Shown: positions 7,385 to 23,317 of the stretch, in pieces | How positions within the stretch are numbered: position 1 is the stretch's first letter | Layout of the letters: each line of letters starts with the position of its first letter | IMG/VR virus record: IMGVR_UViG_3300032770_000026 | Coordinates: 1 to 54,188 of that record | Strand: one strand, 5' to 3' | Source of the DNA: a virus | Taxonomy: Duplodnaviria; Caudoviricetes | Length of the DNA stretch: 54,188 nt | Made by a program: the position numbers and the translations under genes | Notes under the pieces: model-generated | What the model saw: only the letters and a program-made list of their open reading frames with translations | Databases searched by the model: none | What the model was told of the DNA's origin: nothing

Positions 7385-7864
7385 ATGGCAAAGCACAAAT
7401 ATATTGAAACGCCTGAAAAAATGTGGGAATTATTCGAAGCTTATCGAAATGAGATAAAAGGTAATCCTATTGAGATCGTCGAACAAAAAAAGGGTACGTT
7501 AGTTATTCCGAAAAGTTTTGAAGGGAATATAAGTGAGCTTTTTCAATCAACAATAAATTTACCCCAGCAACGGCCTTTAACTATGGAAGGTTTTCTTAAT
7601 TACTTAGACGATAATGATATAATTTCAGATGCAACGGATTATTTTGAAAATAAAAACAATAGTTATGAAAAATATCTCCGTATCTGTAAACGCATAAAGA
7701 GAGTTATAAGGCAAGACCAAATAGAAGGTGGTATGGCTGGCATTTATAACCCTTCAATTACTCAGCGTTTAAACGGACTCACAGAAAAAACCGACATTAT
7801 GTCCGGTGGTCAACCTCTCCAAAGGACCATTATAAAGTGGGGTGATACAACATTAGAAGTATGA
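7385..7864 (+). CDS. terS: Terminase small subunit (P22 gp3-like)
   Basis: ETPEKMWE..Y, PLTMEGF, SITQRLNGL motifs; overlaps terL. Confidence 0.85.
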   Translation: MAKHKYIETPEKMWELFEAYRNEIKGNPIEIVEQKKGTLVIPKSFEGNISELFQSTINLPQQRPLTMEGFLNYLDDNDIISDATDYFENKNNSYEKYLRICKRIKRVIRQDQIEGGMAGIYNPSITQRLNGLTEKTDIMSGGQPLQRTIIKWGDTTLEV

Positions 7865-9267
7865 TCTATGAGTTTACTCCTAAACAATTAGAGGCTTTCG
7901 AGGCCTTACAATCAGAAAAATATAATTTTATTCTATATGGTGGCGCAATCCGAGGCGGAAAATCCGTTTGGGGTTTGTGTTCGTTAATTGTGTTATGTGA
8001 AATATTCCCAGGTTCCAGATGGTGTGTAGTTAGAGAAAATACAGACCGTTTAAGAACAACCACAATACCTTCGTTTCTTAAAATAAGCCCAAAAGGTAAA
8101 TTAAGACAAAATCCTTATGAATATTATCATTGGAATGGATCTACAATTCTTTTTAAAGGTGAAAACATTCAAAAAGACCCTGATTTAGATTCATTCAAAG
8201 GCTTAGAAGTGAATGGATTTCTATTTGAGGAAATAAACGAATGTCAAAAGGTTACTTTATATAAAGGATTTGAGAGGGCCGGATCATGGATTATTCCAAA
8301 TGCAAAAGTAAGGCCAAATCCTATTATACTTGCAACGTGTAATCCTACGAACGGTTGGGTTAAAGATTTGATTTATATTCCTTGGAGAAAAGGGGAATTA
8401 CCGGATAAGTGGATTTATATACCTGCTTTGATAACTGATAATCCACATATTCCACCCGAATATATTGAGAACTTAAAAAACTTGCCACGTTATGAATATG
8501 AAGTTTTTGTGGAAGGCAGTTGGGATGTTCAATTAAAAACCGGAGGTGAATTCTTAAAGGGATTTGAACCTGAAACACATATTAGACCATTAAAGTATGA
8601 TCCTGATTCAATTATTCATATCTCAATAGATTCAAACGTCGATCCTTATATTGCTGTGACTTGCTGGCAGCTTATAAAAGTGAATGATATTTGGGAAATA
8701 AGACAAATTCATGAACTTCCTGCAAGTGATCCATATAATACAGCCCGTAAAGCAGGGGATCAAGTTGGGTGGTGGCTTAGGCAAATAGGTTATAATCAAC
8801 GGGTGTTTATGAACGGCGACCGATCAACGAAAAATCGCAATAATATTGATGATGACAAACGTTCTTTTTATCAAATATTTGTTGATTCAATTAAAAGGCA
8901 GGGATTTGCAATTGAAGATAAGTTTTTGGACCATGCCCCTTCAGTATCACTCATAGGCGACTTTGTGAATGCAATATTTGATGGTACACTTAAATTTGCA
9001 AAGATTATAATTAACGAAAGTTGCAAGAAATCTATTAATGATTATATTGAAACTAAACAGGATAAGGACGGAAGTATACTTAAAAAGTTAGTTGTAAATC
9101 CAAAGACTAAAGTTAGTTACCAGGAGCACGGACACCTCACGGACACATTAAAGGATTTTATTGTACAGGCTTTTTATGAAGAGTTTACGCAGTTTGTAGA
9201 GAGGTTTAAAAAGCTTAAACCCGGCGGGACCAAAATCATCCCTCAAAGATCAAAGATTACGTTTTAA
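7861..9267 (+). CDS. terL: Terminase large subunit
   Basis: Walker A GGAIRGGKS, Walker B FLFEE, TCNP coupling motif, DNP, RNase H-type IDSN and HLTDT. Confidence 0.93.
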   Translation: MIYEFTPKQLEAFEALQSEKYNFILYGGAIRGGKSVWGLCSLIVLCEIFPGSRWCVVRENTDRLRTTTIPSFLKISPKGKLRQNPYEYYHWNGSTILFKGENIQKDPDLDSFKGLEVNGFLFEEINECQKVTLYKGFERAGSWIIPNAKVRPNPIILATCNPTNGWVKDLIYIPWRKGELPDKWIYIPALITDNPHIPPEYIENLKNLPRYEYEVFVEGSWDVQLKTGGEFLKGFEPETHIRPLKYDPDSIIHISIDSNVDPYIAVTCWQLIKVNDIWEIRQIHELPASDPYNTARKAGDQVGWWLRQIGYNQRVFMNGDRSTKNRNNIDDDKRSFYQIFVDSIKRQGFAIEDKFLDHAPSVSLIGDFVNAIFDGTLKFAKIIINESCKKSINDYIETKQDKDGSILKKLVVNPKTKVSYQEHGHLTDTLKDFIVQAFYEEFTQFVERFKKLKPGGTKIIPQRSKITF

Positions 9268-9462
9268 GAAAGCTTGTGAATATCGTTTTTGTTTTTCAAT
9301 CTTATTTATTCTGCTTACAATAACTTTATCAGAAATATATAAATCAGTTTTGCGCAAATAACTTGTAATTGTATGATAATTAAATCCTGACACTTTTGAT
9401 AATGCCTTTATTCCGGTTGCTGCAAAACTTAATTTTGTATCTAAATCTATCAGTATATACAT
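9250..9462 (-). CDS. Small hypothetical protein, possible HTH
   Basis: Reverse ORF with IKALSKVSGFNYHTITSYL. Confidence 0.4.
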   Translation of the reverse strand: MYILIDLDTKLSFAATGIKALSKVSGFNYHTITSYLRKTDLYISDKVIVSRINKIEKQKRYSQAFLKRNL

Positions 9463-9491
9463 TGTACTTGTCAAGATGGATGTATTTTACA

Positions 9492-9539
9492 TGACATACA
9501 AATGTATGCAATTTAACTAACTTTTACAACCTATTTTTG
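9492..9539 (+). promoter_or_regulatory. Late promoter 1: palindromic box plus -7 box
   Basis: TGACATACAAATGTATGCAAT at 9492; TATTTTTG at 9532. Confidence 0.75.
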
Positions 9540-9554
9540 TATAAAGTTTTAACA

Positions 9555-10625
9555 ATGGCAATTACCAAAGATCAGCTTACGCAGCTTAATTTTGGGTATC
9601 TTACAGGGCAAGACTTAGTACAGTTTTGTCCGACTCAGCTTCTTACCTCAATATACGAAAAATATCCTGCTCTTTTGCAAGCTGGCGTAGATATGGCCTT
9701 AGATGAACTCAAGGGTGCTTTGTGTAATCGTTACGATATTGATTCGGAAATTTACAACGCAAATCAATCATTTAAAAATCAAACAGGCGAAATAACTATT
9801 TCGATTGCAGCCGGGACCTACGTAAGCCGAATTTATTTCAATTGGATAGACCAGCTTCAAATAATCTTGCAAGATGCTGCAAACAACGGTATGCAAATGC
9901 CAAGAGATAATTCTCCGACTATTACAATCGGTACAACATTAGACGGCGAAGAAATAATGCCTTCTCAGCAAATCAATGAAGGATCGGTTATATGGATTAA
10001 TAAAATATTCACATCAGCAACGACTTTATATTTAAACATCGTAGGAGGTAATGTCGATATTGATTTATCGGCCAACAGTGGAGTTATTACTCCGCCTATA
10101 ACTGTTGTTGAGTTACTCAACCAAACAGGTGCTTTTACTTTAGTCTTACCGGCTAATACTTATGTTTATCAAATATTTGCCAACATTCTTTTAAGTACGC
10201 CTTCGATAAAGATAGGCACAACAGCCGGGGCAAATGATGTGGCACATTTAACCCTTGTTGCTAATGCTACTTTAACACTTTTAACTCAATATTTTACCAA
10301 TGCAACAACTTTGTATTTTACCGTTACAAGTGGGTCTGTGAATTTAAGACTAGACGAAGGCTTAAACTTTGTCGCCCCAACTCCGATTGTCTCAACAAGC
10401 AAACGAGATAACTATTTTGTTAAAGTGGCTGCTTTATATTCAATCAGAAATATTCTTGGTTCAACGGCTGCGGACAATAAAAAACTCTTATCTGATTTCG
10501 AATGGGCAATGACGCAGGTCGATTTAGTTTTAGACCGACTTAGAAGTTTTAAAATAAGAACAGCGCCTTCTCCTTTAAGAAGTAGTAACGAATTAGTTAA
10601 ATCATCATTTAGAACACTAGGATAA
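9555..10625 (+). CDS. Head-tail adaptor (Mu gp36/DUF1320-like) with a large internal two-domain insertion
   Basis: ELKGALCNRYD N-terminal part and KRDNYFVKVAA...FEWAM C-terminal part flank two beta-rich repeats; lies between terL and portal. Confidence 0.55.
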   Translation: MAITKDQLTQLNFGYLTGQDLVQFCPTQLLTSIYEKYPALLQAGVDMALDELKGALCNRYDIDSEIYNANQSFKNQTGEITISIAAGTYVSRIYFNWIDQLQIILQDAANNGMQMPRDNSPTITIGTTLDGEEIMPSQQINEGSVIWINKIFTSATTLYLNIVGGNVDIDLSANSGVITPPITVVELLNQTGAFTLVLPANTYVYQIFANILLSTPSIKIGTTAGANDVAHLTLVANATLTLLTQYFTNATTLYFTVTSGSVNLRLDEGLNFVAPTPIVSTSKRDNYFVKVAALYSIRNILGSTAADNKKLLSDFEWAMTQVDLVLDRLRSFKIRTAPSPLRSSNELVKSSFRTLG

Positions 10626-12083
10626 ATGCCAGCATCACAAGCACGGAAAGCAGCAAGAGCACATTTACAAGCTGAATGGCAAGCAAAATTAGCCATCGGA
10701 GGCGGAGGCTATGGACAAGGCAATAAAGTTTCAAAGCCTGCTACGGGTACTCAACCCGGAGTTAATCCGTTTATTATTCCTAAGCAATCTGGTCTTAACT
10801 ACACAACCCAGATGTTCCCAAACAACTATTATGTTGAATGGGATTTATCATCTTGGAGGGCAGCTTGCGACCAAGCTATTAAAATGGGATTTCCGGTTAG
10901 TTACGCTGCTTTAACGAGTTGGGTTTACGAGTGTAGCCCTTTCGTGCAATCTTTATTCAATGCTTTAGGCTATGGATTAACTGAGATTCCTGTTTATGTA
11001 ACAGATATGAAGGGTAATAAGATGACCGATATCACAACAGAAGTTTGTGATAAAAAATGGTTCATGGAATTACGTAAGGAGATTTTATTCTCAAGATTTT
11101 GGGGGTTTACCGGAATAAACTTCGATCCAATAAATAATAAGGTTTACAAATATCCAATGCAACAGATTGACCCTATCAATAGACTTTTAAGGCAATCAAC
11201 GTATAATTTTTCCGATGGTATAGACTTTTTTAAAACACCCAATCTTTTATTTGTTCAGCCTTCGACTAATTATGAAGAGTTTCTCGGATGGATGCAGCCT
11301 ATAACCAGGATGTTTATTCAGCAAAATATGAATTCAATGAACTGGATTCAGGCTGGAAGAAGATTAGCGTTTCCACTTCTTTCCGTTCAATACCCTGCAA
11401 GCGATAACGCTATTGATTCTGTAAATAATCTTATAAATGATTATCGGGCTGAGGCTGAAAATTATGTTGCTAATCTTGATCCTTCTAAAGCCCTTATTAC
11501 GCCTTACGTTATTGATCAAAATGGAAAAGTTCAGAGTGCGTTAGTTATTGATTCAAAAGACACTACCGCAAAAGCCGGGATGCATAAAATTTATCAGGAA
11601 TTCAATTCAGACGGTAAAAATGAAGTAAGAGAAATGATCCTCGGTGGAACCTTAACCGGGAATATTGGAGAATCTGGTGGATCTTACAATGCTGCCAAAG
11701 TCCACATGGGTAAACTTACTACTGTTATTACTGCATTAAATAATGAGGTGCTTTCAGTGTTTAATGATGAATCAGATTTTGCCCATAAATTACCTTTGTT
11801 TTATAAGGGATTTCCGAAAGAGTTTAAGTTTGACATTAATAGGACTAAGGAATTTGACATAACCGAAATCGAAAAACTTTCAAAGGCTGCTAGTGAAAAT
11901 AAATTACAACTGACTACTAAATTTTTTATCAAATATGGATTAGATGAAGAAGATATTCAAGAGGCTCCTAATCCTGCGCCAACAGGAGGTAGTTTTGACG
12001 ATGACGATACCGAAATGTCCGTTCAAATCGCCAAGCCTAAACGGTCTGTATTCGATACATTAAAAAAAAAAGAACTATACTGA
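10626..12083 (+). CDS. Portal protein (Mu gp29/DUF935-like)
   Basis: MILGGTLT...GGSYNAAKVH motif, size 485 aa, position. Confidence 0.85.
   Translation: MPASQARKAARAHLQAEWQAKLAIGGGGYGQGNKVSKPATGTQPGVNPFIIPKQSGLNYTTQMFPNNYYVEWDLSSWRAACDQAIKMGFPVSYAALTSWVYECSPFVQSLFNALGYGLTEIPVYVTDMKGNKMTDITTEVCDKKWFMELRKEILFSRFWGFTGINFDPINNKVYKYPMQQIDPINRLLRQSTYNFSDGIDFFKTPNLLFVQPSTNYEEFLGWMQPITRMFIQQNMNSMNWIQAGRRLAFPLLSVQYPASDNAIDSVNNLINDYRAEAENYVANLDPSKALITPYVIDQNGKVQSALVIDSKDTTAKAGMHKIYQEFNSDGKNEVREMILGGTLTGNIGESGGSYNAAKVHMGKLTTVITALNNEVLSVFNDESDFAHKLPLFYKGFPKEFKFDINRTKEFDITEIEKLSKAASENKLQLTTKFFIKYGLDEEDIQEAPNPAPTGGSFDDDDTEMSVQIAKPKRSVFDTLKKKELY
12062..12072 (+). other. Candidate -1 frameshift/slippage site (A10G) linking portal to MuF
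   Basis: The MuF frame is open from 12041, has no ATG until 12203 and spans the A run. Confidence 0.55.
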
Positions 12084-12202
12084 TTGGTAGAGAATACGTT
12101 CATTTAAAAGTTAAGCCCAAACAAATAATAGCTCAACCTCTCAAGGTAAACAAAATAGAATTTGTTTATCGTAACCCGGCTAAAACCGTTATAGATAAGG
12201 AT

Positions 12203-13591
12203 ATGTATAAGGCTTATAATCATGCCTTTTATAGTGAACTCATAAATAATACTTCAATTAAGACAACTTACGAAGCCTTCGGGGACACAGCTTGGCATGA
12301 GCGATATATGCTTAATGCTTATCAATTTTCAGCCGCCAAAGATTTAAGCGAAACCAAAGCTTTGCAAGAATTAGTTTTTCAATCAGAGGGATTTAAGGAT
12401 TTCAAAGAAAAAGCAAGCGAGATAAGCGATATATTTAATGATCAGTGGCTCCGGGTTGAGATGGATGTCTGCAAGCGTAATACTGTTATGGCCGAATCAT
12501 TTAGAAAAATAGAAGAAACGAAGGATTTATATCCTTACTGGATTTATAAAACGGAAAATGATGATAGGGTAAGGGATGAACATGCTGCTTTAGAAGGTAT
12601 CGTTTTTAGGGTTGGCGATCCTGAAGGAGATAATGTCTATCCTCAAAATGATTGGAATTGTAGATGTCATGGTGAACCTGTTGACGATCAATATTTGAAA
12701 GAAGAAAATAAACAAGTTTCAAAAGGAGAAGATTATCTTAATGAAAAAGATCCAGAATCAGGGAAGCCCTATGTTAATGAAAATTTTAGATTTAATCAAT
12801 TTCATCAAGGCGCAATGCCAAATAATAGCAGTTATTCAGAAGTTTTAAGTAGTGCGAATAAAGGGAATGCCGAATTATTTGATATGCCTGCAATTCCCGA
12901 ATTAGGTAAAATGGAGGAATTGTTAACTACTCCAATAGACATGAGTAAAATCAACAATTATGAGCTATATGATATTGACGGAGACGTAGGAAAATCAAGG
13001 AAAGGAATATCACTTTTTAATAGGATTTCTAATAAAGATTTTGTATCTTTAGGTGGAGATACTCCTGATTCTGACCTAATTATAAAGAAAATTGAAACAG
13101 GAACAATGTCTCAAAATGACCTTCGTATTGCTATTAAAACAGATAAATACGAAAGTCTTGTAACAGTTTCTAAATATGGCAATAACTTAAGTTTTGACAT
13201 TGACCATGTTGATGTTTTTGAAACAGGATCAGGATTAGGCGCTAAAATGTTTGCTAATATGTTGGACGCTGCTGAAAAAAATGGGTTTGAGAATATAGAA
13301 TTAAGGGCAGCGAAAGGAATCCATGACGGCAAAACTTATAACGGGTATTATACTTGGGCTCGTTTTGGGTTTGAGTTAAGAAATGATCAACAAAAAGTCT
13401 ATTTTCTTAACCTGGTAAAGACAAAAGGAGAAACAGCAACCATAAGGAATGCTAAAACGCTTCAAGAGTTAATGAGAACTAAAGAAGGCCAGATATTTTG
13501 GAAAGAAAACGGGTTTGATTACCTGGGTTCTTTTAACATAAAGAAAGACAAAAATTACTTTTTAGACTATTATAACCATAAATTTAAATAA
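12203..13591 (+). CDS. MuF (SPP1 gp7-like) minor head protein with GNAT-like C-terminal extension
   Basis: YKTENDDRVRDEH, PQNDWNCRC; C-terminal GSGLG...GYYTWARFGF. Confidence 0.85.
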   Translation: MYKAYNHAFYSELINNTSIKTTYEAFGDTAWHERYMLNAYQFSAAKDLSETKALQELVFQSEGFKDFKEKASEISDIFNDQWLRVEMDVCKRNTVMAESFRKIEETKDLYPYWIYKTENDDRVRDEHAALEGIVFRVGDPEGDNVYPQNDWNCRCHGEPVDDQYLKEENKQVSKGEDYLNEKDPESGKPYVNENFRFNQFHQGAMPNNSSYSEVLSSANKGNAELFDMPAIPELGKMEELLTTPIDMSKINNYELYDIDGDVGKSRKGISLFNRISNKDFVSLGGDTPDSDLIIKKIETGTMSQNDLRIAIKTDKYESLVTVSKYGNNLSFDIDHVDVFETGSGLGAKMFANMLDAAEKNGFENIELRAAKGIHDGKTYNGYYTWARFGFELRNDQQKVYFLNLVKTKGETATIRNAKTLQELMRTKEGQIFWKENGFDYLGSFNIKKDKNYFLDYYNHKFK

Positions 13592-13732
13592 ATGGATATT
13601 CCGACTTTTGAAGAAAATAATCATCTTTGGATTGAGGAAGGGTATAAACGAAGTAAAGAATTAGGGGATGCTCGAAAAAAGGATATTGAGCAAAAAAAAG
13701 TCCCTGAAATACCCCTTGAGGAGGTAGAATAG
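13592..13732 (+). CDS. 46-aa acidic protein, candidate immunity protein
   Basis: MDIPTFEENNHLW...EEVE, starts immediately after the MuF stop (TAAATG); below the ORF-track cutoff. Confidence 0.5.
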   Translation: MDIPTFEENNHLWIEEGYKRSKELGDARKKDIEQKKVPEIPLEEVE

Positions 13733-13972: not shown

Positions 13973-14354
13973 AAATGATACTAAACCAAAGATGCAGGAA
14001 TTGCTTGTCTTGGTTGACGAATGGCAAAGAACATATCATTTCGACAAGGGAATTATAGTTTTTCAGAACAAAGAAAATTTAACTAACATCCGATTCAACA
14101 ACAATAGTTTTCACGAAATAGCAAAGCATACCAGGGGGGTTGAAAATTTACCTGAAGCTTTGATGCGGCCCGACGAGATTTGGAGCTATTGGGATGATCC
14201 AAAGAAACAATTAAGCGTAAGACGTAATTACATATTGTTAGGAAGTAATGGCAACTATGTTGTTAAAACTAAGGATGGCATAGTAATAAATGCTATATTT
14301 GTAGTTGATAGTTTGATAGATAGATTCAGAAAAGGGCTTTTAATTATAAGATGA
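13962..14354 (+). CDS. Stand-alone PBECR2-like (BECR fold) nuclease domain
   Basis: LPEALMRPDEIW...RRNYI...RKGLLI resembles MuF-associated PBECR2 domains. Confidence 0.6.
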   Translation: MKGLNDTKPKMQELLVLVDEWQRTYHFDKGIIVFQNKENLTNIRFNNNSFHEIAKHTRGVENLPEALMRPDEIWSYWDDPKKQLSVRRNYILLGSNGNYVVKTKDGIVINAIFVVDSLIDRFRKGLLIIR

Positions 14355-14947
14355 AAACAATAACTGATCTTTTACGCGACATAACGACCAAATATTCTGA
14401 AATGCAGAAGTTAAAACAGAATATGCCTCGTATTATTGGTGTTGAATCGGTTAAGGTATTAAAAGAGAACTTTAAAAAACAAGGTTACGATTCTGGCACA
14501 GGCTTTACAGCATGGAAGAAACGCAGCAAAGCAACTGATACGGCTTATGATTATAACAGAACTTCCAGCTACAGGACGCCAAAGCTTCACAAAAAATCAA
14601 AATACAAAAATCCCTATAAGGGATCGGTTGTTTCTTCAAAACGTCCTATCATGGTTCAAACTGGAAACACAAGGGACGCGCTTAATTTCCAAGCAAACGG
14701 GAATAAAACAATTATTGGGATATTTCCAAGAATTGTGATGATAGGAGGTAAATCTCATGATGCTTTTGCTCATGCTAAGATATTAAATGAAGGTGGGACG
14801 GGGACATGGGGAAGGCATTCTACTAAAATACCTAAGAGACAGTTTATGCCGCGCCCTCAAGATCCACCCAATCAGGCAATCTTAAATCAAGTAAAGAAGA
14901 AATATTTTTTTGAATTGGATAAATTTATGGCTGATTGGAAAAAATAA
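14351..14947 (+). CDS. Virion morphogenesis/tail completion protein (Mu gpG, P2 gpS-like)
   Basis: ENFKKQG..WKKR, AKILNEGG, IPKRQFM. Confidence 0.8.
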   Translation: MKTITDLLRDITTKYSEMQKLKQNMPRIIGVESVKVLKENFKKQGYDSGTGFTAWKKRSKATDTAYDYNRTSSYRTPKLHKKSKYKNPYKGSVVSSKRPIMVQTGNTRDALNFQANGNKTIIGIFPRIVMIGGKSHDAFAHAKILNEGGTGTWGRHSTKIPKRQFMPRPQDPPNQAILNQVKKKYFFELDKFMADWKK

Positions 14948-22696: not shown

Positions 22697-23317
22697 ATGA
22701 AGATTTGTGGCATATATAAAATTACATCGCCTATTAAAAAAATATATATAGGAAAATCAATTGATATTTTTCATAGATGGAAATTATACAATAATTTAAG
22801 ATGTAAATCACAAACCCATCTTTATAATTCATTAAAAAAATACGGAGCCAATAAACATAAATTTGAGATTATTTGCCAATGTGACAAATCAGAATTAAAT
22901 AATCTTGAAAAATATTATATAGCATTATTCCAGTGTTTTAATAATAAATATGGATTAAATCTAAAGTCTGGAGGCGAAGGAGGTAGTATTTGTTCAGATG
23001 AAACTAAGAAAAAACAGAGTGATGCTCAAAAAAGGATTGGCAATAAACCTCCAATTATATGGGGAGATGCAAAAGGTAAATTTAAAAAGGGACAAAAAGC
23101 ATGGAATAAAGGCAAAAAAATGAGTCACGAACAGTATGAAGCTTGCAAAAATACTATGTTTAAAAAGGGCTCTCATTTATCAGAAGAAATTAAACAAAAA
23201 ATGTCTGAATCTCAAAAGGGGAGAAAACATACTGAAGCGACAAAAATAAAAATGAGCGAATCAGCAAAAAATAGATGTAAGCAAAATAATGAAATATTTG
23301 ATTTAATTTTAAACTAA
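22697..23317 (+). CDS. Free-standing GIY-YIG homing endonuclease with NUMOD3 repeats
   Basis: GIYKIT...YIGKS..R; HLSEEIKQKMSES and HTEATKIKMSES repeats. Confidence 0.9.
   Translation: MKICGIYKITSPIKKIYIGKSIDIFHRWKLYNNLRCKSQTHLYNSLKKYGANKHKFEIICQCDKSELNNLEKYYIALFQCFNNKYGLNLKSGGEGGSICSDETKKKQSDAQKRIGNKPPIIWGDAKGKFKKGQKAWNKGKKMSHEQYEACKNTMFKKGSHLSEEIKQKMSESQKGRKHTEATKIKMSESAKNRCKQNNEIFDLILN

Follow-up and report, generated by a model that had tools for sequence, protein, structure and literature searches.

Two kinds of recoding signal come closest to the site described here. In dnaX of Thermus thermophilus (tau/gamma) and in spa13 and mxiE of Shigella, a bare homopolymer as long as the RNA-DNA hybrid lies within coding sequence, without accessory structure, and gives rise to two products with a common N-terminus; slippage is efficient at 9 A/T, the known sites run to 9-10 A/T, the hybrid measures 9-10 bp, and the slipped share is about 50% for dnaX and 25-30% for spa13 (PMC5009743). 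In the tail chaperone pair G/GT of phage lambda and most tailed phages, it is the ribosome which shifts, at a heptamer such as G_GGA_AAG, giving a fixed ratio of a short and a C-terminally extended assembly protein from a site that lies in the late structural operon and is conserved across phage lineages (PMC5009743, PMC7302621). Here we describe a run of ten A's (A10) at the 3' end of the portal gene of the virus record IMGVR_UViG_3300032770_000026 (Caudoviricetes), a 54,188-base stretch of DNA from a wetland metagenome with an estimated completeness of 88%, analysed at its full length and called the window below. Behind the run, in the -1 frame, lies a MuF-type head protein which appears to lack a start codon of its own.

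The best-studied MuF protein, gp7 of phage SPP1, binds the portal, is present in few copies in the procapsid and aids the start of infection, and MuF proteins often bear C-terminal toxin or enzyme domains, presumably delivered at infection (PMC6316719, PMC5576092). Portal-MuF fusion genes have also been described, in the Microbacterium phage clusters EA3/EA5/EA8 and EB (PMC7302621). Closest to the present case, the PRFect survey of SEA-PHAGES genomes raises the possibility that frameshifting connects, in some phages, genes which other phages have as a fusion; it names MuF-like genes, their partner being a VIP2 ADP-ribosyltransferase, and counts this pair among 'false positives' that are unverified (PMC10885494). 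The word 'portal' is absent from the available text of that paper and of the recoding review (PMC5009743; 300,000 characters), and the word 'frameshift' from the MuF toxin paper. We found no published description of portal-MuF recoding in a search that lay outside subscription journals and closed supplements, so that an earlier report is possible.

The locus in the window shares traits with each of these systems. It resembles dnaX and spa13/mxiE in its bare homopolymer of hybrid length and in the common N-terminus of its two predicted products, but genes, organisms and purpose are others, as the slip would join two structural proteins of a phage head. It resembles G/GT in the conservation of the site across phage lineages, in its place in a late structural operon and in the fixed ratio of short and extended protein that would result, but it has 9-12 A's where G/GT has a heptamer, it concerns the portal and MuF pair, and the extension would be a whole protein with a cargo domain. 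The order of domains, portal then MuF in one polypeptide, is that of the Microbacterium fusions and of Porphyromonas phage phage012a (BK068093; see below); in such constitutive fusions a single open reading frame (ORF) puts MuF on all 12 portal subunits, whereas here only slipped products would be fused. As with gp6 and gp7 of SPP1, the portal would carry a few copies of MuF into the procapsid; unlike gp7, which has a separate gene with its own start and binds non-covalently, MuF would here be tethered covalently and dosed by slippage.

We consider it probable that A10 is a programmed slip site which joins the portal to the MuF frame mainly through slippage of RNA polymerase, and very likely that recoding takes place at the run by one route or the other, polymerase or ribosome; the readings without recoding are improbable even when taken together. 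We also lean slightly towards a broader view, in which slippage on the poly-A run is the sole route to MuF and its cargo and represents, after G/GT, the second broadly conserved case of recoding in tailed-phage morphogenesis. The slip frequency, most likely that of the polymerase, would then set how many of the twelve portal subunits bear MuF, a protein that would go to the interior of the capsid and on to the host; several distant clades would have acquired or kept the layout, and public genomes such as Peternella_1 would misannotate it as two ordinary genes.

The A-run and the start-less MuF frame

The portal gene ends in TTA AAA AAA AAA GAA CTA TAC TGA, with the ten A's at 12062-12071. The MuF frame lies at -1 relative to the portal and is open from 12041 for 54 codons before its first start at 12203, with no ATG, GTG or TTG in that frame from 12041 up to 12203. 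An earlier note on this DNA had described the junction in these terms, and every detail of its description is correct. It had added that genes in this genome normally abut, which is true of many gene pairs in the structural module, but the window also has frequent gaps of 100-300 nt, and for this reason the 119-nt gap between portal and MuF means little alone.

The run itself is the sole A/T run of at least 9 on either strand of the window. A Markov model expects 33.5 runs of seven A's, 13.8 of eight and about 9.8 of at least nine, and we observed 28, 9 and 1, respectively; about 3.1 T-runs of at least nine are expected and none is present, so that A and T runs of this length together number about 13 by expectation and one by observation. 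In dinucleotide shuffles the nine-A pattern had a mean of 22 matches, with at least 2 in each of 100 shuffles, as against this site only in the window. The genome tolerates runs of up to 8 and purges longer ones, A10 being the single exception, and the run is more than chance.

Portal-based scans for relatives gave 19 viral and 37 metagenome loci. We examined 16 of the 19 viral loci, leaving out two on contigs already seen (L011 and L027) and one that ends before the junction (L020); of the metagenome loci, 8 of the 37 stop short of the junction and 7 repeat earlier junctions; L039 was resolved by hand. Adding the window brings the set to 36 distinct junctions, with portals 39-83% identical to that of the window, and the counts below refer to this set unless another is named. 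A run of 9 to 12 A's is present in all 36, ending 0-19 nt upstream of the portal stop; its length is ten in 30 junctions, nine in 2, eleven in 3 and twelve in 1. The frame of MuF, counted from that of the portal, is -1 in 35 junctions and +1 in one (L048), and in no junction are the two in frame. The first A falls on codon position 3 in 25 junctions, on position 2 in 6 and on position 1 in 5, and since the phase of the run varies in this way, its length is not a by-product of three lysine codons. Elsewhere in these portals AAA accounts for 663 of 1054 lysine codons (63%), and A10 is retained in three lineages which prefer AAG (AAA share of 25-38%). Selection thus acts on the nucleotides of the run, keeping its length near 10 across three phases and against the local codon preference.

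Long runs are concentrated at the junctions, which account for 35 of the 40 A/T runs of at least 9 in 171,430 bases of related loci. The other five are runs of 9, four of them apparently intergenic or at gene ends (L062 241-249, L013 7169-7177, L012 1549-1557 and L014 6322-6330), and the fifth, L062 900-908, within a 107-codon open frame upstream of the portal. The junction run is an uninterrupted run of at least 9 in coding sequence, conserved at synonymous sites in genomes in which such runs are otherwise avoided, all of which argues that A10 is a slip site maintained by selection. A conserved slippery run with a -1 overlap and no independent start for MuF, for which the earlier note had proposed to look, was found in 35 of the 36 junctions and in 7 of 7 in a second clade described below, and this conservation of run and frame relation supports its reading of the junction as a portal-MuF fusion made by programmed frameshift.

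The single lineage with MuF in the +1 frame, L048, has its A10 at 2811-2820, and downstream of the run it lacks one base compared with the closest relatives, L025 (A11) and L016 (A10 and an extra C). Its portal tail belongs to a cluster (P0073) that is found on 7 contigs from three sources. Outside the loci obtained by scanning, blastn of the portal-MuF region against GenBank phages gave no match, and tblastn of the portal of the window matched two distant gut-phage records only; one of these (L033) has no A-run, and the gene next to its portal begins with ATG.

The segment between the run and the first possible start of MuF is conserved as protein. The first canonical start (ATG, GTG or TTG) in the MuF frame lies 19-401 nt past the run, at positions which are not conserved: the Met at 12203 of the window is Ile in L003, where the first ATG falls within the conserved TAWHERYMLNAYQF block. 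The peptide that follows the lysine run is kept in all 36 junctions, as a hydrophobic triplet, G.EY, a spacer and a Y.N..GK...P.Y..YN..FF block. In three pairwise comparisons of the start-less segment, third codon positions account for 22/41, 22/39 and 18/30 of the differences, dN/dS is 0.165 between L009 and L010 (the only pair with unsaturated synonymous sites), and the other two frames hold 2-6 stops. From the portal stop to 12203, the sequence evolves as coding sequence under purifying selection in the MuF frame. Furthermore, in four loci of the clade of the window (L023, L024, L054 and L070) and in four of the second clade (L072-L075, of which L072 is Peternella_1), the first two A's of the run are part of a TAA in the -1 frame, and entry into that frame is therefore possible there only inside the run. 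To judge from these alignments, MuF and its cargo are without a start codon of their own.

The second clade includes a cultured phage, Winogradskyella phage Peternella_1 (MT732475), with a Mu-type portal (E 7e-60) that is too distant from that of the window to be detected by tblastn. The portal gene of Peternella_1 ends CCT AAA AAA AAA AGT ..., again with ten A's (L029 2708-2717), from which a start-less -1 frame runs into Phage_Mu_F (E 7e-18), and both A10 and the -1 relation are present in all seven distinct junctions of its clade (portals 66-71% identical to that of Peternella_1). The run is absent from Flavobacterium phages FPSV-S1 and lotta8-1, which belong to the family of Peternella_1 and have an ATG 4 nt past the portal stop. 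The public record of Peternella_1 annotates MuF from an internal GTG (L029 2836), an annotation which probably cuts off a conserved N-terminal segment.

If recoding at the run is confirmed, many lineages express a core pair of head genes by recoding, unnoticed by current annotation, which gives MuF genes arbitrary internal starts at the cost of their conserved N-terminal segment, as in Peternella_1. Gene finders could then use a simple rule, namely to look for at least 9 consecutive A's shortly upstream of the portal stop and, behind them, for a MuF frame that lacks a start. Programmed transcriptional slippage could also be studied in these phages in its natural setting, in probable Bacteroidota hosts, where frameshift stimulators based on Shine-Dalgarno pairing are not expected to act; Peternella_1 on Winogradskyella sp. 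HaHa_3_26 is a cultured phage-host pair with the same site.

RNA polymerase, ribosome and readings without recoding

The data show a recoding site, at which either RNA polymerase or the ribosome may slip. We propose that most transcripts carry A10, so that their translation would stop at the TGA at 12081 and yield the 485-aa portal. In some transcripts, the nascent RNA would be realigned by RNA polymerase against the ten T's of the template (T10) and gain one A, and ordinary translation of the resulting A11 mRNA would proceed from Lys482 into RTILIGREY... to give a portal-MuF-cargo protein of 482 + 506 = 988 residues, which is the same by either route. The fused protein, as the earlier note had it, would be the minority product. 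As MuF and cargo have no start of their own, the amount made would be set by the slip rate.

The ribosome could make the same product by a programmed -1 shift on A_AAA_AAA or A_AAA_AAG in the unedited A10 mRNA, and this is the alternative that survives best, though we hold it to be rather unlikely. Since every run has at least 9 A's, each of the 36 junctions offers an in-phase heptamer regardless of how the run is phased, and L014 even has CAA AAA AAA AAG TAG, a classical dnaX-type A_AAA_AAG with the stop directly after it; moreover, -1 frameshifting is an established mode of recoding in phage structural genes, the tail chaperone G/GT being an example (PMC5009743, PMC7302621). Seven A's would suffice for such a heptamer, yet none of the 36 junctions has fewer than 9 and 30 of them have exactly 10, which favours the polymerase. 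The cut between A8 and A9 seen throughout the genome of the window points the same way, as it matches the 9-10 bp of the RNA-DNA hybrid and the length of 9 A/T at which slippage is reported to be efficient (PMC5009743). Shorter runs tell a similar story: the 37 A7 and A8 runs of the window occur at near-chance frequency, which suggests that bare A-heptamers are harmless and not very shifty in this host.

Frameshift cassettes of the kind known from E. coli dnaX and lambda G/GT combine a heptamer with a stimulatory element, either a stem-loop or pseudoknot downstream or a Shine-Dalgarno-like site upstream, and here the in-phase heptamer is present, while no stimulatory structure is found among the 15 junctions folded. 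On either side of the run, these junctions fold no more stably than the sequence around them (median share of equally stable local windows 0.41-0.58; no separate search was made for a Shine-Dalgarno-like site), and an Rfam search around the site gave no match; the lack of both an enriched structure and an Rfam match again favours the polymerase. Finally, L048 requires a +1 change at the same run, which slippage of the polymerase can supply.

Several points weigh against the polymerase as the main source of the fusion. Ten A's always include an in-phase A_AAA_AAA, and a ribosomal -1 shift may contribute; the purge of runs of at least 9 could instead be directed at replication slippage. The RNA polymerase of E. 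coli is reported to slip poorly on A-runs in the coding strand compared with T-runs, a property that depends on the polymerase (PMC6260861), and there are no RNA runs among the sequencing runs listed as holding the sequence of the window. The run is also not strictly needed to join the two domains, as three relatives have portal and MuF fused in frame (see below).

Among the readings in which nothing is recoded, the one that retains some support, although we consider it highly improbable, holds that MuF is a separate protein, translated from a non-canonical start (ATT, ATA or CTG) or by re-initiation past the portal stop, and that the A-run serves only to encode Lys-Lys-Lys at the portal C-terminus. 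An ATT does overlap the stop (TGATT, TAATT) in the window and its closest relatives, in the manner of coupled stop-start overlaps, and KKK or KKKK is found within the last 16 residues in 112 of 119 related portal clusters. However, no near-cognate start is conserved, and in L023 the stretch from the run to G.EY (AAG TCA ACC CAA TTA GGT) has none at all. A lysine motif alone would not demand A's against codon preference, nor ten of them and not nine, nor do so in three phases. The peptide in the MuF frame is conserved from the run on and aligns to in-frame fusions from the lysine run, and an independent start would permit any frame, yet MuF is at -1 in 35 of the 36 junctions.

The portal tails that depart from the lysine motif include P0085, which leaves KKK and continues into LLIGSEYVNL for 14 residues, and P0108 and P0122, which end RKKW... 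and in which the run might be shorter. A further tail, P0044, ends EKKNWL and is still compatible with ten A's.

The fusion could also be supplied at the level of DNA, by genome subpopulations in which replication slippage has put portal and MuF into one in-frame gene. The three in-frame relatives, with junctions such as KKKN that an 11-A run read in frame would give, and L048, with its one base fewer at the run, are what such slippage would leave behind. We see a very slim chance for this reading, as no DNA junction among the 36 is in frame, unfused relatives outnumber fused ones by 225 to 3 at the protein level, and contigs of three sequencing runs cross the run without an indel, though contigs hide minority variants.

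That homopolymer error in sequencing or assembly has split one long ORF, or that the pair is decaying, has next to no chance of being right: errors are frequent in homopolymers and the window is a contig of an uncultured virus from a metagenome, but runs of 9, 10, 11 and 12 A's occur in independent contigs of many samples and always keep the frames apart, both ORFs are under purifying selection, and the layout is the same in the cultured, finished genome of Peternella_1. The constitutive fusion with an assembly error that the earlier note had held out as its alternative was accordingly rejected, with no junction in frame and no indel in the Logan contigs. Logan contigs of two runs are identical to the window over 11400-12800 (both runs may be the source sample), and a 151-nt Logan contig of a relative of about 90% identity, from a third run, crosses the A-run without a gap. 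Of the two arguments against an artefact, the comparative one, frames kept apart by runs of A9-A12 in many samples, is stronger than that from the Logan contigs.

The fused protein, its cargo and other portal-MuF layouts

The C-terminus of the portal would face the capsid interior. Through slippage, non-covalent recruitment of MuF of the SPP1 gp7 type would be exchanged for a covalent one, dosed by slip frequency, and since each copy of MuF would be made already attached to a subunit of the portal, the portal vertex would be its point of entry into the procapsid. One homopolymer would thereby set, through its slip rate, the copy number of a portal-bound and possibly ejected protein, from which MuF and cargo might be released later. 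The earlier note had placed the effector at the DNA exit vertex, a position which is suggested by analogy with SPP1 gp7 (PMC6316719).

The cargo of the window is a 227-aa C-terminal domain for which direct searches of Pfam, PDB and PHROG gave no usable match. It has 1269 homologues at E<=0.001, many of them in very large multi-domain proteins. Repeats of the family were seen in proteins of 1000-2600 aa (among P0127-P0143), together with ADP-ribosyltransferase, DRAT or SocA/Panacea domains, which suggests that the family belongs to a shared pool of cargo or toxin-module domains. Regarding the GNAT identity given to this domain in the earlier note, some homologues do match GNAT models, weakly, but the domain of the window itself matches no Pfam family, GNAT families included, at E<=0.01. 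One homologue (P0127) matches a GNAT model above the cut-off, and another (P0126), 88% identical to the window domain in its matching part, below it. Among 37 aligned homologues there are matches to Acetyltransf_1 (4), Acetyltransf_7 (3), Acetyltransf_10 (2) and Acetyltransf_CG (2); GNATs are the top 4 of 5 weak matches of the family profile in the PDB (E 0.017-0.21), and the rank-3 cluster in the ESM Atlas (score 0.91) has PF00583 on 20% of its members. A GNAT-like fold is thus a reasonable lead from these profile matches. The C-terminal region varies among relatives, the -1 ORFs that are complete in their loci ranging from 280 to 900 codons.

In Porphyromonas phage phage012a, an 853-aa single ORF (L028 1507-4068) contains Portal_Mu, Phage_Mu_F and a PBECR2 nuclease domain; its gene is annotated merely as 'portal' and in fact encodes a constitutive portal-MuF-cargo protein. 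Among the relatives of the portal of the window, P0004, P0005 and P0006 are in-frame portal-MuF proteins of 878-925 aa (45-49% identity), each known from one sequence on one contig; at their junction, KKKN... or KKKS..., KKK is followed by VIG.EY. The -1 peptide of the window aligns to one in-frame fusion from the lysine run onward (E 1e-49). These three could be true fusions or one-base variants of run length. The existence of in-frame portal-MuF proteins, as predicted from their genes, indicates that a portal-MuF fusion protein is viable, and, if the run is indeed a slip site, separate, slip-joined and fused genes would be linked evolutionary alternatives for the same two domains.

Gene order of the window and probable hosts

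The features of the region are collected in Table 1. The portal ORF matches Portal_Mu with E 6.4e-12 (45.9 bits, cut-off 23.9) and the MuF ORF matches Phage_Mu_F with E 2.8e-14 (54.2 bits, cut-off 29.6), both in Pfam; MuF also matches PHROG 220, 'minor head protein and DNA pilot' (E 6.6e-25). The PF04233 domain thus lies immediately 3' of the portal gene, as is characteristic of the MuF superfamily, and portal and Phage_Mu_F occupy frames 0 and -1, split by the TGA, so that the window does not encode a constitutive fusion.

Table 1 Features of the window around the portal-MuF junction.
Feature	Positions	Strand	Remarks
Small terminase	7385-7864		
Large terminase	7861-9267		
362-codon ORF between large terminase and portal	9537-10625		no Pfam or PHROG match
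Portal gene, 485 aa, ends ...LKKKELY*	10626-12083	+	zero-frame product; Pfam Portal_Mu
TAA closing the -1 frame upstream	12038-12040	+	5' limit of the shift window, 21 nt before the run
A10 slip site	12062-12071	+	codes for Leu479 (last base only) and Lys480-482 in the portal
Start-less MuF-frame coding segment (RTILIGREYVHLKV...)	12071-12202	+	reached only from the portal frame
Zero-frame stop TGA	12081-12083	+	9 nt after the run
Rest of MuF ORF as called by the ORF finder, 462 aa from first ATG	12203-13591	+	
Phage_Mu_F (PF04233) domain core	12506-12670	+	Pfam match, residues 156-210 of P0002
C-terminal 227-aa cargo domain	12908-13588	+	widespread family, possibly GNAT-like
Neck/tail-completion protein	14351-14947		

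The true start of the 362-codon ORF upstream of the portal is uncertain, as it is called from a TTG after a gap of 269 nt (region 9268-10625). Directly 3' of the MuF ORF there is a 46-codon ORF (13592-13732), and the tape measure and baseplate hub are encoded farther downstream in the late region. A search of the window for tRNA genes found none, and sites resembling promoters or terminators are no more numerous there than expected by chance.

The hosts of these phages are probably Bacteroidota. A scan of genome contigs gave a sole locus, L034 (CAIKTE010000355.1), a 1637-nt contig which stops short of the junction; it belongs to a Chitinophagaceae metagenome-assembled genome, and its portal is 62% identical to that of the window. 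Its assignment offers a faint hint of a Bacteroidota host. The structural module of the window also holds, at 22697-23317, an ORF for a homing endonuclease of the GIY-YIG type (PHROG 314, E 1e-30).

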